Part shown: piece after piece, positions 388 to 58,620 of the stretch
How the letters are laid out: each line of letters opens with the position of its first letter
Position numbering within the stretch: the stretch's first letter is position 1
Assembly (NCBI GenBank): GCA_951406725.2
Contig: OX597838.1
Location: 15,996,001-16,060,000, forward strand
Direction of reading: 5' to 3'
From: Octopus vulgaris
Lineage: Eukaryota
Length of the DNA: 64,000 nt
Notes under the pieces: model-generated
The model's input: the letters and a program-made list of their open reading frames with translations, nothing else
Database searches by the model: none
Told to the model about the DNA's origin: nothing
Position numbers and translations under genes: made by a program

Positions 388-785
388 GGCGTGGCGGTAT
401 GGTAAGAAGCTGCAAGCTTGGCAGAAACGTTAGCACGCCGGGCGAAATGCTTTGTGGTATTTCGTCCGCCGCTGCGTTCTGAGTTCAAATTCCGCCGAGG
501 TCGACTTTGCCTTTCATCCTTTCGGTGTCGATCAAATAAGTACCAGTTACGCACAGGGGTCGATATAATCGACTTAATCCGTTTGTCTGTCCTTGTTTGT
601 CCCCTCTGTGTGTAGCCCCTTGTGGGCAGTAAAGAAATTGGTATGGTAAGAAGCTGCTTCCCAACCACATGGTTCTGGGTTCTGTCCCACTGCATGACAC
701 CTTGGGCAAGTGTCTTCTACTATAGCCTCGGGCGGACCAACTCCTTGTGATTTGGTAGCTGGAAACTGAAAGAAGCTCGTTGTCG
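388..785 (+). mobile_element. SINE family B (CORE-type) 5' part, interrupted by a SINE-A copy at 414-639
   Basis: CCTTGGGCAAGTGTCTTCTACTATAGCCTC CORE-like motif. The inserted SINE-A is flanked by an 18-bp TSD GGTATGGTAAGAAGCTGC (396-413 and 640-657). Confidence 0.9.
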
Positions 786-5781: not shown

Positions 5782-6000
<219 letters not shown>

Positions 6001-6016
6001 AATTAATTAATTAATT

Positions 6017-6410
6017 AAGGCGACGAGCTGGTAGAATCGTTAACACGCTGGACGAAATTCTTAGCGGTTTTTCCTACGTCGATGCGTTCTGAGTTCAAAT
6101 TCCACCGAGGTCGACTTTGTCTTTCATCATTTGGGGTTCGATGAATTAAGTACCTGTTACACACAGGGGTCGATGTAATCGACTTAATCCGTTTGTCTGT
6201 CCTTGTTTGTCCGTTCTGTGTTTAGCCCCTTGTGGGTAGTAAAGAAATAGGTATTTTGTGTCGTTATGTTCTGAGTTCAAATTCCACCGAGGGTGTCTTT
6301 GCCTTTCATCATTTCGGGGGCGATTAGATAAGTACCAGTTACGCACTGAAGTCGATGTCATTAACTTAACCCCCTCCCGCAAGCTGGCCTGTTGCAAAAA
6401 TTTGAAATCA
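6017..6410 (+). mobile_element. SINE-A dimer
   Basis: Unit 1 ends AAAGAAATA. Unit 2 starts GGTATTT at 6250 and ends with the alternative tail ...AAATTTGAAATCATTATT. Confidence 0.88.
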
Positions 6411-17679: not shown

Positions 17680-18295
17680 AGACGCAGGACTGGATGTGCG
17701 GTTAAGGAGCACGCTTTGCAACCAGCTGTTTTTAGGTTCAGTCCCACTGCATAGTACCTATTTCTTTAATACCCACAAGGGGCTAAACACAGAACGGACA
17801 AACAAGGACAGACAAACAGATTAAGTCGATTACATTGATCCCAGTGTGTAACTGGTACTTATTTAATCGACCCCGAAAGGATGAAAGGCAAAGTCGACCT
17901 CGGCAGAATTTGAACTCACAACGTAACGACAGACGAAATACGGCTACGCATTTCGCCCGGTGTGCTAATGTTTCTGCCAGCTCGCCGCCTATGCCAGCTC
18001 GCCGCCTATGCCAGCTCGCCGCCTATTGCTAGCTCGCCGCGTGTCTTCTACTATAGTACCAGGCCGACTAATGCCTTGAATTTGGTAGACACAAACTGTG
18101 CGGTAGCCCCCATACGTGTGTGTGTCGTGTGTCTTTGTATGTGTACATGTGTGTGTCATCGTGTTTGTGTTTTCCCCACCTCGCCTAATAACCAGTGTTG
18201 GTTTCTTTATGTCCTCATAAACTAGCGGTTTGGCAAAGAGACCGATAGAAAAAAATAAGTCGATCTGGGGTCCAGTGACTGAAACAAGTAAGAGA
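17680..18295 (+). mobile_element. Old SINE-B interrupted by an antisense SINE-A (17759-18040)
   Basis: The B head stops at ...CATAGTACC and the B body resumes at GTGTCTTCTACTATAG. The A copy has a reiterated 5' end. Confidence 0.85.
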
Positions 18296-19859: not shown

Positions 19860-20472
19860 CTTTTATTCTTTTACTTGTTTCAGTCATTTGACTGCAGCCG
19901 CCATGCTGGAGCACCGCCTTGAGGGGTTTAAGTCGAACAAATCGAACCCCAGGACTTATTGTTTTAAAGTCCAGTACATATCTTATATGTCCTTTTTGCA
20001 GAACCGTTATGTTACGGGACGTAAGCACACCAACACCGATTGTCAGGTGGTAATGGGGAACAAACGCAGACGCAAAGACACATACCTAAATATCAAGGTA
20101 CCACATAGTGGGACTGAACCCAGAACCATGTAGTTGGGAAGCAAGCTTCTTACCATACAGCCACGAATGCACCTATATACAATCGTTCATCCGATGAATA
20201 TTTTCAGTTTTTACTTATCTCTCTATATATCCAAATATATATATATATATATATATATACAGATAGATAGACAGATAGATAGATAGATAGATAGATATAC
20301 ATATATACGACGGGCTTCTTTTAGTTTCCGTCTACCAAATCCACTCACAAGGCTTTGGTCGGCCCGAGGCCATAGTAGAAGACACTCGCCCAAGGTGCCA
20401 CGCAGTGGGACTGAACCCGGAACCATGTGGTTCATAAGCAAGCTACTTACCACACAGCCACTCCTACGCCTA
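19860..20472 (-). mobile_element. Two partial SINE-B copies (about 19860-20175 and 20300-20472)
   Basis: Reverse-complement matches to the B tail and B head. Confidence 0.8.
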
Positions 20473-20479
20473 TATACAC

Positions 20480-20546
<67 letters not shown>

Positions 20547-21034: not shown

Positions 21035-21450
21035 TACTCTTTTACTCTGTTACTCTTTTACTTGTTTCAGTCATTTGACTGCGGCCATGCTGGAGCACCG
21101 CCTTTAGTCGAGCAAATCGACCCCGGGACTTATTCTTTGTAAGCCCAGTACTTTATTCTATCGGTCTCTTTTGCCGAACCGCTACGTTACGGGGACGTAA
21201 ACACACCAGCATCGGTTGTCAAGCAATGCTAGGAGGACAAACACAGACACACAAACATACACACATATATATACATACACATATACGACGGGCTTCTTTC
21301 AGTTTCCGTCTACCAAATTCACTCACAAGGCTTTGGTTGGCCCGAGGCTATAGTAGAAGACACTTGCCCAAGATGCCACGCAGTGGGACTGAACCCGGAA
21401 CCATGTGGTTGGTAAGCAAGCTACTAACCACACAGTCACTCCTGCGCCTA
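21035..21450 (-). mobile_element. SINE family B, full length
   Basis: Reverse complement of the family B pattern. Confidence 0.92.
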
Positions 21451-21790
21451 TGTACGTATGTATGTTTGTACGCATGTATGTATGTACGTATGTACGTATT
21501 TATATACGTATGTATATATATAATAAATTAATAAATAAAATAAAACATATGCATATATACATATATATGTACGTACCTACCTCTACATGAATATATACAC
21601 GCATATATGGGTACAGGACACCAAAAAAACGTCGATCACATTTATTTTGACGTTTTTTTGGGGTGTCCTGTACCCATATATGCATGTATATATATCGAAA
21701 CCGCGATCCTTCGATCGCGAGTTCGCTGCCCTTGAGCCTCCACACACGCACACACACATACGCACACACACACACGCGCGCGCACACACG

Positions 21791-26010: not shown

Positions 26011-26400
26011 AGGCGGCGATCTGGCAGAGCAGTTAGCACGCTGGATGAAATACTTAAGCGGCCAGCTGGCAGAAACGTTAGCACGCTGGGCGAAATGCTT
26101 AGCGGTATTTCATCTGCCGCTACGTTCTGAGTTCAAATTCCGCCGAGGTCAACTTTGCCTTTCATCCTTTCGGGGTCGATTAAATAAGTACCAGTTACGT
26201 ACAGGGGTCGATGTAATCGACTTAATACCTATGTCTGTCCTTGTTTGTCCCTTCTATGTTTAGCCCCCTGTGGGTAATAAATAAATAAGTATTTCGCCCG
26301 TCGCTACGTTCTGAGTTCAAATTCCGCCGAGGTCGACTTTGCCTTTCATCCTCTCGGGGTCGATATAATCGACTTGTCCCCTCTCCCTTTGTGCTTATTA
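26011..26400 (+). mobile_element. SINE-A nested in SINE-A
   Basis: Old head (26011-26055), full young copy (about 26056-26287), then the old copy resumes at AGTATTTCG. Confidence 0.88.
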
Positions 26401-29137: not shown

Positions 29138-29832
29138 AACGCATAAATCAGCTTTGAATAGACACTGAACGTGCGTGTCTCGGATAAATTTGTTTCTCTA
29201 CATTTCTGTTCGCACAGGTTTGATTACTACAGGCTCTATACAATATATCCATGGCTGTGGATATATTGTATGTAACCGACGGAGTGCCAAGCACGTGATT
29301 ATTTGTCACTAACCTCGCCATGAGTCAGAGGTGGCTGATGAGCACATTGCTTAACAATGGAGCCCATCCCATCTACATGAAACGAAAGAACCAACATTTC
29401 AGCTTGCAGCGATCACCCTAGTTACCCACATACCTACTTTTTGGAACTATATACGTTGTTGGAAATACACTACCAAAGAAATGTAATTATCAACCATCTC
29501 CAAAAACTCTTTTATGAACTACTCCCTCTGTTCATAAATCTGTCCACCCAGCTCACCCCCTTTTAAGTTTTTATTCCCCTGGTGATCTCGATCGAACCAA
29601 ATCCTAATCCCTTTAATCGAGCCTTTGGTACACCTACGCATGCAGTTCAACCAGATGCACCTCCCTTCCCAAGCCCCGAGTTCAAAGCCCACTACATTGT
29701 CCCTGCTAATATATGTTCTCTTTATGCGGCAGTACATCTCCTCTGTGGTACCGTCCACCCAAAATTTCCTATGTTTACGGCAACATATTAGTCAGATCGA
29801 ACGTGTATGGAAGGACGGTATATTTGCATCCC

Positions 29833-30305
29833 AAGGCGGTGAGCTGGCAGAAGCGTTAGTACGCCGGGCGAAATGCTTAGCCGTATTTAAGGCGGCGAGC
29901 TGGCAGAATCGTTAGCACGCCGGACGGAATGCTTAGCGGTATTTCGTCTGTCGTTACGTTCTGAGTTCAAATTCCGCCGAGGTCGACTTTGCCTTTCATC
30001 CTTTCGGGGTCGATAAATTAAGTACCAGTTATGCACTGGGGTCGATATAATCGACTTAATACCTATGTCTGTCCTTGTTTGTCCCCTCTGTGTTTAGCCC
30101 CTTGTGGGTAATAAAGAAATAGGTATTTCGTCTGCCGTTCCGTTCTGTGTTCACATTCAGCCGAGGTCAACTTTGCCTTTCATCCTTTCGGGGTCGATAA
30201 ATTACGCACCAGTTACGCACTGGCGTCGATATAATCGACTTAATCCGTCTGTCTGTCCTTGTTTGTCTCCAGTATGCTTAGCCCCTTGTGGGTAGTAAAG
30301 AAATA
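29833..30305 (+). mobile_element. SINE-A nested in SINE-A
   Basis: Outer TSD GGTA(T/C)ATTTGCATCCCA at 29817-29833 and 30306-30322. Inner full copy 29889-30121 is flanked by GTATTT. Confidence 0.93.
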
Positions 30306-30591
30306 GGTACATTTGCATCCCAGTCCGAATGGAATGCTCCTCAACACATCGAACTTCCGCAACAATTGACTTAAACATCAAGAGAGATTGAAATGAAAAT
30401 CCTTGATGGAACAAGAACGTAATTTGAAACAGCGCTGACAGAGGGTCATTCGATAACAATATTTTCACCCCACTTTTTTTTTTTTTTTGCTGTTATACTT
30501 ACACGCTAACATGACTCTTCAACACTGCAATTGCCTTAGTTTCGAACCATGATTTGGGCTCAAGTCCCTTGCTAAACAACTTCAGCTTCAA

Positions 30592-39348: not shown

Positions 39349-39915
39349 GGCGAGCTGCCAGAAGCGTTAGCACGCCGGGCGAAGTGCGTAGCCGTATTTC
39401 GTCTGCCGTTACGTTCTGAGTTCAAATTCCGCCGAGGTCGGCTTTGCCTTTCATCTTTTCGGGGTCGATAAATTAAGTACCAGTTACACACTGGGGTCGA
39501 TGTAATCGACTTAATCCGTCTGTCTGTCCTTGTTTGTCTCCTCTGTGCTTAGCTCCTTGTGGGTAGTGAAGAAATAGGTATTTCGTCTGTCTTTACGTTC
39601 TGAGTTTAAATTCCACCGCGGTCGACTTTGCCTTTCATCCTTTCGGGCTTGATAAAATAAGTACCAGTTACGCACTGGTGTCGATGTAATCGGCTTAATC
39701 CGTTTGTCTGTCCTTGTTCGTCCTCTCTGTGTTTAGCTCCTTCTGGGTAGTAAAGAAATAGGTATTTCGTCTGCCGCTACGTTCTGAGTTCAAATTCCAC
39801 CGAGGTCGTCTTTGCCATCCATCCTTTCGGAGTTTATAAAATAAGTACCAGTTGAGAACTGGGGTCAATGTAATTGACTTATCCTTTCCCTTATGCCAAA
39901 ATTTGAAACCAATAT
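39349..39915 (+). mobile_element. SINE-A trimer
   Basis: Junctions AAGAAATA|GGTATTTCGTC at 39577 and 39761. The last unit carries the alternative tail. Confidence 0.92.
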
Positions 39916-46874: not shown

Positions 46875-47093
46875 TTTTATCTTTAACTTGTTTCAGTCAT
46901 TAGACTGCGGCCATGCTGGGGCACCGCCTTGAAGAGGTTTTAGACGAATGAATCAACCCTAGTACTTTTTAAAATTATTATTTAAGACTTATCTTATGCC
47001 GAACCGCTAAGTTACGTGGACGTAGGCACACCAACACCGGTTGTCAGACGTTAGTGGGAGACAAACGCAGACGCAAAGACACACACACAAATG

Positions 47094-47169
<76 letters not shown>

Positions 47170-47325
47170 GATGTGACGGGTTTCTTTCAGTTTTCGTCTA
47201 CCAAATCCATTCACAAGGCTTTGGTTGGCCCGATGTTATAGTAGAAGACTCTTGCCCAAGGTGCCACACAGTGGGACTGGATCGGGAACCATGCGGTTGG
47301 GAAGCAAGATTCTTACCACACGGCA
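46875..47325 (-). mobile_element. SINE family B, diverged
   Basis: Reverse complement of the family B pattern. Confidence 0.85.
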
Positions 47326-47702
47326 ACGCTTTGTAAGAGTGAACTTCACTGATGTCACCCAAGGACCAAGTGGTGGTGTTAAACCGGGCGACGGATGAAA
47401 TCTACCACTCATGTAAGCCGTAACTGGATTTGAGCTCAGAACACAGACAGCCGAAGCAAGTACTACAAGGAATCGCTCAGGATTCGATTAGTCAACTGCC
47501 TTAGAATGCGACTTTATTTATCGAGCACAGAAAGGTGACGGGCAAAGCTGTCTTCGACAGGCCTCGGACTACAAGCGCAAGAAACCGAAATAAACACCAC
47601 AAGGCCTTCCGTTTAACAACCTTTGTAATGATTTGCTCTAGACTCTAGAATCTAGAAAATATTAGTTTTAGTTTTTACTTACTTGATCTGAGGGAGAGGA
47701 AA

Positions 47703-52926: not shown

Positions 52927-52980
52927 CAAGAGCATTTCGGGCCGTCCTACCTGACGGTATTTCTTTGACTATCTATATCT

Positions 52981-53399
52981 AAGGCGGCGAGCTGGCAGAA
53001 ACGTTAGCACGTCGGGCGAAATGTCTAGCAGTATTTCGTCTGCTGCTAGGTTCTGAGTTCAAATTCCGCCGAGGTCGACTTTGCCTTTCATCCTTTCGAG
53101 GTCGATAAATTAAGTACCAGTTACGCACTGGGATCGATATAATCGACTTAATACCTATGTCACTTCTTGTTTGTCCCCTCTCTGTGTTTAGCCCCTTGTG
53201 GGTAATAAAGAAATAGGTATTTCGTCTGCCGTTACGTTGTGAGTTCAAATTCCGCCGAGGTCGACTTTACTTTTCATCCTTTCGGGGTCGATAAATTAAG
53301 TACCAGTTACGCACTGGGGTCGATATAATCGACTTAATACCTATGTCTCTTCTTGTTTGTCCCCTCTATGTTTAGCCCCTTGTGGGTAATAAAGAAATA
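52981..53399 (+). mobile_element. SINE-A dimer
   Basis: TSD GGTATTTCTTTGACT at 52956-52970 and 53400-53414. Internal junction at 53216 (GGTATTTCGTC). Confidence 0.93.
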
Positions 53400-53529
53400 G
53401 GTATTTCTTTGACTGTAGAGCTTATCACGAAATGGCAACGGTCTCAAACCCCGAAACATTGCCAGGCCAAATTTCTAAAGATTATTCGTCCGTTGATTTT
53501 TGTCGGCGCCCAGAGTTTTTCCCCGAGAA

Positions 53530-53734: not shown

Positions 53735-53944
53735 TTTTACTCTTTACTCTTTTACTTGTTTCAGTCATTTGACTGCGACCATGCTGGAGCACCGCCTTTA
53801 ATCGAGCAACTCGATCCCGGGACTTATTCTTTTGTAAGCCCAGTACTTATTCTATCGGTCTCTTTTGCCGAACCGCTAAGTGACGGGGACGTAAACACAC
53901 CAGCATCGGTTGTCAAGCAATGCTTGGGGGACAAACACACACAC

Positions 53945-53987
<43 letters not shown>

Positions 53988-54152
53988 TACGACGGGCTTC
54001 TTTCAGTTTCCGTCTACCAAATCCACTCACAAGGCTTTGGTCGGCCCGAGGCTATAGTAGAAGACACTTGCCCAAGGTGCCACGCAGTGGGACTGAACCC
54101 GGAACCATGTGGCTGGTAAACAAGCTACTTACCACACATCCACTGCTGCGCC
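53735..54152 (-). mobile_element. SINE family B, full length
   Basis: Reverse complement of the family B pattern. Confidence 0.93.
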
Positions 54153-54721
54153 TTTTTCCCACGTTAATGTTTTTTCTCCGAGTGAAGTAAAGCTATGGAT
54201 AAAAAGCGTTCTGGCCACGACCATTCAGTCTTTTTTTTAATAATATAGTAGATTGTGATATGACCGATAACTGGTAGTCATTTTCAAGAAGGCGATCGTC
54301 TTCGAAGAAACTATTCCTTTGCTCCTAGGCGTACGTTTAAAGGGAGATAACAAGTGATTCTGAGGAGTGCTTTCCCTTGAATCATATTTTATAATTTTAT
54401 TGTAAAATTGAATATTTAAGAAATGGTGTTTGAGGATAGACTTGACACTTACGACACTTCCGACAGATGATATGTCCCCGTAATCTAAGATTCGCCAATT
54501 CCTTGTCTTAGGGCAGACGTTTCCTTAATGGATACTAACTTGTAATCTGACAGCCCGGTTGTGTCAGAAAACCAAGTCTATTGCGCTTCATTATACATAC
54601 ACACATATACACAAACGTGTACACAAACACACATACACACACACACACGCGCACGCACGCAAACATATCTTTAGATAGATGTGTATCTCTAAGTATATAT
54701 ATATATATATATATATCTGTA

Positions 54722-57825: not shown

Positions 57826-58011
57826 GAGCGAAGAGGGTATCAGTTAAATATGACCTTATTCAATATATTCACTGCTCAGATTCATACACTTATTGCAGCA
57901 GTCCTTTAGTTTTTCTAAAAGAACTCGAAGGTTTGTCCCCCAACGAGGCCTTTCGCGTTATCCTTAAAGCTAGGAAATGTTCAGCACTCCCTCGTATATC
58001 AGAAACGTTTC

Positions 58012-58217
58012 AAGGCGGCGAGCTGGCAGAAACGTTAGCACGCCGGACGAAAAGCTTTGTGGTATTTCGTCCGCCGCTGCGTTCTGAGTTCAAATTCCGC
58101 CGGGGTCGATAAATTAAGTACCAGTTACGCACTGGGGTCTATGTAATCGACTTAATGCGTTTGTCTGTCCTTGTTTGTCCCCTCTATGTTTAGCCTCTTG
58201 TGGTCAATAAAGAAATA
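58012..58217 (+). mobile_element. SINE family A with a short internal deletion
   Basis: TSD AGAAACGTTTC at 58001-58011 and 58218-58228. Confidence 0.92.
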
Positions 58218-58620
58218 AGAAACGTTTCTTTTTTTAATATCGTTACACCGTAAATTTCATAAACTCCTGCTACTAAGACGTCTACTTTTGATTAATCAAT
58301 AATTTCTAATCTGTGTATCACATTTAAATTCACATGCTTCTCTAAATTTTTCCATCATTTAACGTCATTTTAATTTGTGAGCGCTGTGAAATTTCAAATA
58401 CTTCGGAAATTACATCAACATTCAGCGTACAACCTTATCGCACAATGGTCTGAGGCAGACAGATAGTTTAAGCTCTCAGCAGAGAGATTAAATAGACGTA
58501 AAGCAGGACGGCCTTACACTTTCGCTCGATATATTAGAAGAAATAACAGCAAAAACTCTTTCCAATCACAAATTACCATCTTAAAAACATGTGAAGGATC
58601 AGAGTATAGCAGGAACCTTG

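Follow-up and report, generated by a model that had tools for sequence, protein, structure and literature searches.

A target-preferring SINE of Octopus vulgaris that inserts into its own head, with target motifs bound to lineage

The octopus short interspersed elements (SINEs) OR1 and OR2, reportedly described by Ohshima and Okada in 1994, are said to be tRNA-derived and to have a 5' part in common and different tails. This pattern resembles the young and older tails of the element analyzed here, a non-coding, high-copy SINE of 233 nt found in a 64,000-nt stretch of the Octopus vulgaris genome (assembly GCA_951406725.2, contig OX597838.1, positions 15,996,001 to 16,060,000 of the forward strand; hereafter "the window"). 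OR1 has been classed as a CORE-SINE (PMC4824008).

The closest known case is SINEU with Tx1-Mar of crocodilians (Kojima 2015, PMC4494074), likewise a target-preferring SINE, likely moved by a long interspersed element (LINE) of the Tx1 type and found in sequential tandem insertions, for which co-transcription with the target has been discussed as a possible means to greater specificity. The target of SINEU, Mariner-N4_AMi, is also that of its LINE, whereas the octopus SINE targets its own head, the nearest LINEs sit in microsatellites, and the motif varies by SINE lineage. The Kibi, Koshi and crocodilian microsatellite-targeting Tx1 families of the same paper, which are LINEs with an apurinic/apyrimidinic endonuclease (APE) inserted in simple repeats, resemble the octopus LINEs in (TATC)n, (ATT/ATC)n and (TA)n, but they are autonomous and the accessible text describes no self-targeting SINE for them. 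Accurate priming by SART1Bm rose from 36% to 76% when AGG was added, and R1Bm depends on target sequence further downstream (PMC7265360). We propose for the octopus SINE a similar pairing of a short RNA downstream of the element with the nicked strand, which improves accurate priming; in SART1Bm and R1Bm, however, a specific endonuclease fixes the site and pairing refines it, whereas here pairing is proposed to choose the site and to be inherited. Squamate SINE-derived satellites (PMC10702118) are also tandem arrays of a SINE portion that homogenise with length, but they are attributed to unequal recombination, whereas in octopus the unit boundary is the retrotransposition target site. We found no description of SINE self-insertion or of read-through targeting in SINEs in the openly accessible literature, and a word search of the available text of PMC13282606 returned no mention of nesting or target sites, although Repbase or supplements (e.g. 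the repeat library of PMC13282606) may describe this family. What is new is a target-preferring SINE that uses a site of its own and has lineage-bound motifs; the mechanism through an RNA flank is unproven but testable.

Target motifs of the SINE

Genome-wide counts refer to the 2.8-Gb genome, while the local sample comprises 464 kb around the window together with loci on C1 and elsewhere, giving 490 SINE tails, 338 of them without selection on the flank. Positions in the SINE are numbered after the inner copy at 29889-30121. The preference for GGTA targets that had been proposed for the window from its letters alone (the sequence-only reading) holds genome-wide: GGTA directly follows 51,573 of the 101,678 exact tails (50.7%), against a background of 0.27% per position in the 464 kb. 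In 26,366 cases (25.9%) the tail is directly followed by the SINE body from position 50 (GGTATTTCG), and 3,432 exact tails are followed by AGAAAC. A search for flanks other than T (2,211 matches) was flank-biased and was set aside unused.

GGTA is target sequence and not part of the tail, because target duplications begin exactly at the tail end and both copies carry the motif. With low-complexity flanks excluded, a duplication, mostly of 13-18 nt, was called at 100 of 227 non-self junctions; the upstream and downstream sides match at a rate of 0.19 at base -1 and 0.84 at base +1, and 72 of the 100 have a pyrimidine at base -1. Genome-wide, GGTAC stands at both ends of 565 full-length copies.

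Among the 338 unselected tails, 142 join a SINE at position 50, five at position 17, eight were called elsewhere (three of these, by eye, are GAAATA slips before position 50), and 183 lie at non-self targets, where GGTA (52), TATA (45), GATA (10) and AGAA (8) are among the motifs; nesting is thus not scattered over the element. The exceptions to GGTA that the sequence-only reading put down to a relaxed preference form further classes, and a single endonuclease motif leaves the separate AGAAAC and TATAT classes uncovered. The classes are discrete in that base 3 depends on bases 1-2 (T after GG, A after AG; p = 1e-7), and the target motif falls into GGTAT, TATAT and AGAAAC. TAT at bases 3-5 is common to most SINE target classes and to LINE targets. 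Both GC-containing motifs, GGTAT and AGAAAC, correspond to sites in the SINE head, namely GGTATTTCG at position 50 and AGAAWC at position 17, and at AGAAAC loci the sequence is often that of the SINE from position 17 onwards. For the 73 targets that start with GG, 62 match GGTATTTCG at base 3 and 33 at base 6, with values near background beyond.

Several side observations concern the junctions. A GAAATA is added after the tail, before position 50, in L323, L380, L250 and a copy on C25, and resembles reverse-transcriptase slippage. A third landing site within the SINE lies on the opposite strand, at antisense position 138 (GGTACTTAATTTATCGA, GGTACTT; e.g. L216, L386, L391-L393 and L398), and accounts by eye for about one third of the 100 GGTAC matches listed, compared with 73 of 523 local GGTAC sites. 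L009, L012, L014 and L023 show repeated SINE insertion in a different repeat, at GGTACTGGCA or GGTATCAGCC, where host sequence is similar to the 5' end of the SINE; the head is adjoined by no duplication at these loci, which suggests homology-guided 5' joining.

Self-insertion and array growth

At 29817..30322 the order is target duplication, host head 1-56, a full copy, host 50-233 and target duplication again. The exact pattern of head, duplication and new head has 52 matches, most of them with a duplication of 15-16 nt that begins with GGTA. The young tail is followed by host position 50 in 24 of the 25 two-headed loci listed (two rows represent one locus), and at L101, L113, L118, L121 and L122 bases private to the host are seen by eye in both copies of the duplication. 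Two-headed nests with a 15-16 nt duplication are target-primed insertions at one exact site, so that the self-insertion and the landing site in the head, both claimed in the sequence-only reading, are real. None of the three outcomes that this reading named as able to refute it has occurred. The coordinates named there stand, with three small corrections. The structure at 29833 is as described, but its inner duplication is one of 7 nt, CGTATTT upstream and GGTATTT downstream; at 26011, by comparison, the joint at 26288 reads AATAAATA followed by AGTATTT, shows no duplication and is weak evidence of self-insertion; and the tail at 639 is correctly placed, its ending being AAAGAAATT.

A point missed in that reading is that most self-joints have a single head. 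Two heads are kept in just 4 of 103 sampled nests, the remainder being one-headed. Such joints could be tandem DNA duplications between the GGTATTT of the head and a target duplication starting with GGTA, with no self-insertion at all, as would fit the predominance of one-headed forms and the near-identity of inner units in long arrays. The first-unit joints, however, link unrelated copies (median distance 0.10; 5 of 81 within 0.03), 32 of 81 second units carry a different tail type, and the two-headed nests have their duplications with host-private bases in both copies. The young-on-old hybrids refute tandem duplication as the sole cause, and we regard this explanation of the position-50 joints as very improbable, while it stands for the long arrays.

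Where the host lacks the young tail, its divergence exceeds that of the incomer 29 times versus 2, and G occupies the joint in 76 of 81 one-headed nests versus 113 of 207 ordinary heads. In 17 of 59 hybrids one duplication pair adjoins both the single head and the older tail (control, 5/174). The one-headed form may have arisen by homology-guided 5' joining that replaced the host head or by retrotransposition of a read-through RNA started at the inner promoter, and probably did so by both. First units that are 5'-truncated and have no head upstream (10 of 103 nests) favour some copying of read-through dimer RNA. No second unit is shared among 37 hybrids (minimum distance 0.073), which excludes a small number of masters though not a large one. 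Host-private bases occur at positions 52-66 of one-headed nests in 28 of 138 cases (16.9 expected), a rate no higher than at 91-168 (75/468; 39.6 expected), so there is no signature of retained host sequence. Outer duplications were called in 12-14 of the 22 hybrids, in 72-77 of 122 young solos and in 5 of the 20 older ones. Because a still older subfamily and copies with microsatellite flanks are among the older solos, this dating is suggestive only as a means to separate homologous joining from dimer copying. Dimers of two young units show no significant age order (27 versus 19, p = 0.30). Locus L198, where a full copy is succeeded by 29 nt of host body before a 22-nt duplication, is the single possible case of priming inside read-through RNA.

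It could also be supposed that what is recognised in the head is a structure, or a site bound by RNA polymerase III (Pol III) factors, with a weak sequence preference. The structure would be a hairpin or cruciform spanning roughly 33-62 and flanked by putative A and B boxes, box-like motifs judged by eye against the consensus. A long hairpin is indeed predicted in the head, with position 50 in its arm, and the sense and antisense SINE sites both appear over-represented; Rfam gave no match for the head and ARAGORN only a weak fold at a relaxed threshold. Head structure would leave unexplained both GGTA at unique non-SINE targets (52 of 183) and the lineage-specific classes described below, and we consider it improbable.

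The proposal of the sequence-only reading that the SINE builds its own arrays is right only in part. Dimers consist of unrelated copies, but arrays of at least four units mostly have near-identical inner units (distances 0-0.02; in L257, ten 184-nt units with inner distances of 0-0.005), and they therefore grew by local DNA duplication. Homogeneous tandem units derived from part of a SINE, as in a SINE-derived satellite, are found in the long arrays only. Identical SINE arrays with their flanks occur at several places on C1 (L089-L092 and L326/L327) and are probably segmental duplicates.

The probable partner LINE and the choice of target

The tail of the inserted copy (30078..30121) forms a GCCC-CTTGT-GGG hairpin, followed in the general tail plan by AATAAAGAAA, and older relatives of the SINE have positions 1-168 in common with it and different tails. 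The search of LINE tails for a partner, suggested in the sequence-only reading, gave as the closest tail seen that of L402, identical to that of the SINE at 39 of 44 nt, in an element that matches ORF2 (open reading frame 2) at E 1e-47. LINEs with a matching tail encode the domains Exo_endo_phos (APE), RVT_1 and zf-RVT. The SINE is thus likely to be moved by an L1/Tx1-type LINE with an APE endonuclease, as judged from tail and domain similarity. The earlier suggestion of a partner with a restriction-like endonuclease (R2/R4/CRE/NeSL type) that recognises GGTA would agree with the listing of Dong-R4, Hero and R2 families as recently active in an octopus annotation (PMC13282606, Table 1). Every LINE found with the SINE tail architecture nevertheless matches an APE-type ORF2 (restriction-like LINE tails were not directly compared), and we give this partner hardly any credence. 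A Dong/R4 candidate, prompted by the (ATT)n context at 5891-5962, was rejected, the tail there being that of an APE-type LINE.

A near-complete L1/Tx1-type LINE, L052:2890-9030 (C25, about 15.81 Mb, ~180 kb upstream of the window), is flanked by (TATC)n on both sides and has an ORF1 with a CCHC knuckle and a frame-split ORF2 with an N-terminal PF03372 domain (Exo_endo_phos), then PF00078 (RVT_1) and PF13966 (zf-RVT). Its nearest solved relatives are L1 endonucleases, and the atlas clusters are named LINE-1 ORF2 family; the Tx1 label within the L1 group is provisional and based on two traits, the CCHC knuckle in ORF1 and microsatellite targeting. The family looks currently active, judging by more than 50 copies with an identical 170-aa C-terminus and many open frames of 1,159 aa, often clustered in one tract, and (TATC)n stands at the 3' end of 30 of 30 near-identical copies. 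In the 5' region of L052 (L052:3041-3053) the hairpin of the SINE tail recurs (GCCCCTTGTGGGC), enclosed in a longer inverted repeat. Related LINE families that share the tail plan occupy (ATT/ATC)n and (TA)n. Of 140 near-tail LINE copies, almost all of the 100 listed are inserted into TATC- or TA-type repeats, with one at GGTAT and none at the self site, and among 100 listed of 778 LINE-style tails before GGTAY only one or two are of LINE type, the rest being SINE variants. SINE and LINE accordingly share no main target, the LINEs lying in TATC, ATT or TA repeats and the SINE mostly at GGTA, with overlap only in the TATAT and AAT/ATT classes.

The motif class follows the lineage of the SINE. 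Tail base 221C is found in 19 of 23 AGA and 15 of 19 self-17 loci, but in 6 of 47 GG and 12 of 142 self-50 loci (counts that include flank-selected loci). Among unselected solos with tail 221T/223G, after removal of three flank duplicates, those whose heads have 45G+50C divide into 16 TAT and 3 GG, those with other heads into 4 and 17 (p = 9e-5), and private divergence is similar in the two groups (0.020 and 0.024). A permutation test on positions below 200 connects class with lineage (p = 2e-4, n = 89), and one young lineage comprises 16 GG, 11 self-50, 3 other and no TAT. The dependence of motif class on SINE lineage, seen when tail variant and age are equal, is newly described here. The 45G+50C variant also removes the copy's own GGTA, as in the young lineage of L312, L317 and L324 (GCGTAGCCGTATTT); such copies may be immune as hosts for self-insertion, and C at position 50 is found in 37/118 solos and, among nested first units, in 19/82.

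To account for these results we favour, with a probability of roughly 0.55, a reading in which read-through RNA pairs with the nicked primer and the choice of target is inherited through the 3' flank, the SINE being likely moved by an L1/Tx1-type APE LINE. A stop of four T (T4) is absent from 142 of 207 full units, the reference copy included, and read-through past the tail is therefore expected. Pol III would run past the tail AAAGAAAUA into the 3' flank, most copies having no T4 stop; the endonuclease would nick loosely, with a pyrimidine before a TAT-rich site; and reverse transcription would start at the tail end only where the next bases of the RNA pair with the primer. Since the flank carried on the RNA would pair with the primer, daughters would land on the motif of their source's flank and the motif would be heritable. 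A nested source would have the SINE's own sequence as its flank, creating a feedback loop. Long arrays extend later through local duplication, as their near-identical inner units show. At slightly below even odds, the SINE may have taken over target choice from its LINE, the 3' flank of each source copy acting as a short RNA guide that is re-made at each insertion. Specificity would then be inherited from outside the sequence of the SINE itself, would have switched over time (AAT/ATT, AGAAAC, TATAT, GGTAT) and would twice have become locked onto sites in the SINE's own head, giving self-homing that seeds arrays.

A number of results weigh against the RNA-flank reading. The link of lineage and class is absent among 221C copies (p = 0.33) and reaches just p = 0.07 in the narrowest tail match. 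Junction bases templated by the RNA show no genome-wide excess, a mismatch upstream with G downstream giving 45 matches (2 of 10 checked were real duplications), the reverse 19, and G on both sides 565; the local asymmetry is weak as well (16 versus 8, p = 0.15; for bases 1-2, 15 versus 4). Strict pairing of the primer end would also yield no templated bases, and the junction-base test therefore does not separate the models. The 82 self versus 36 non-self GGTAT events, for a site share of 35/615, amount to a large enrichment at the self site only when each one-headed dimer is taken as an event of its own; counting two-headed nests alone, the figures are 4 self versus 36. No LINE with the exact SINE tail is among the 100 matches listed, and the partner is hence inferred from tail likeness.

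Alternatively, the motifs may be set by the endonucleases of several L1/Tx1 partners, according to SINE lineage or period, self-insertion being a by-product of GGTAT and AGAAAC in the head. The classes differ in age, as a succession of partners would give, which also tells against the RNA flank. The pyrimidine at base -1 cannot derive from an RNA flank, the first G belongs to the target in nearly all GGTAC cases, TAT recurs at bases 3-5 in most classes and in LINE targets, and the antisense site at position 138 is also used without long RNA homology. Kojima 2015 likewise takes the endonuclease as the main determinant of target choice (PMC4494074). Several endonucleases would, on the other hand, make the match of two motifs to two self sites a coincidence; class can be predicted from head and body variants distant from the tail when tail variant and age are equal, and the matches listed contain no LINE family inserted at GGTAY or the self site. 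We consider this explanation unlikely, though by no means negligible, and retain pairing of the RNA flank as the preferred reading.

Window features and implications

The features of the window on which the analysis draws are collected in Table 1. Short tandem repeats of head sequence, either the first 17 nt or the first 65, lie upstream of a full copy at 17759-18030 of the window (minus strand) and in L105. A second abundant dispersed repeat, of ~300 nt, is present at 20218-20544, 21196-21522, 47084-47410, 53900-54226 and other places in the window, and the SINE copy at 396-657 appears to be inserted in the head of this repeat.

Table 1. SINE copies, nests and target duplications in the window
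Feature	Position	Strand	Remark
Outer target duplication, upstream copy, GGTATATTTGCATCCC-A	29817..29833	+	last base overlaps head
Host SINE head, positions 1-56	29833..29888	+	
Inner 7-nt duplication, upstream copy CGTATTT	29882-29888	+	downstream copy reads GGTATTT
Complete inserted SINE, 233 nt	29889..30121	+	reference copy
LINE-like tail of inserted SINE	30078..30121	+	39/44 nt identical to L1/Tx1-type LINE end L402
Remainder of host SINE, positions 50-233	30122..30305	+	~10% divergent from inserted copy
Outer target duplication, downstream copy GGTACATTTGCATCCCA	30306..30322	+	
One-headed hybrid, full-length young copy followed from position 50 by a body with older tail type	6017..6369	+	
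Old head (1-47), new copy, host remainder	26011..26375	+	no duplication seen
One head and three bodies	39349..39881	+	last body older-tailed
One-headed dimer within GGTATTTCTTTGACT duplication	52956..53414	+	
Solo copy, AGAAAC class	58001..58228	+	11-nt duplication
Solo copy with GGTATGGTAAGAAGCTGC duplication	396..657	+	

About four in ten sampled tails adjoin the body of another copy, and copy counts, ages and consensus models of the family are therefore distorted unless nests are resolved. Target choice in retrotransposons without long terminal repeats (non-LTR) is usually credited to the endonuclease; a SINE of very high copy number whose lineage-bound motif is unlike those of the nearest LINEs makes a contribution of RNA pairing testable in natural data. 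If true, this would provide a route from a dispersed SINE to a satellite with a defined seed step.
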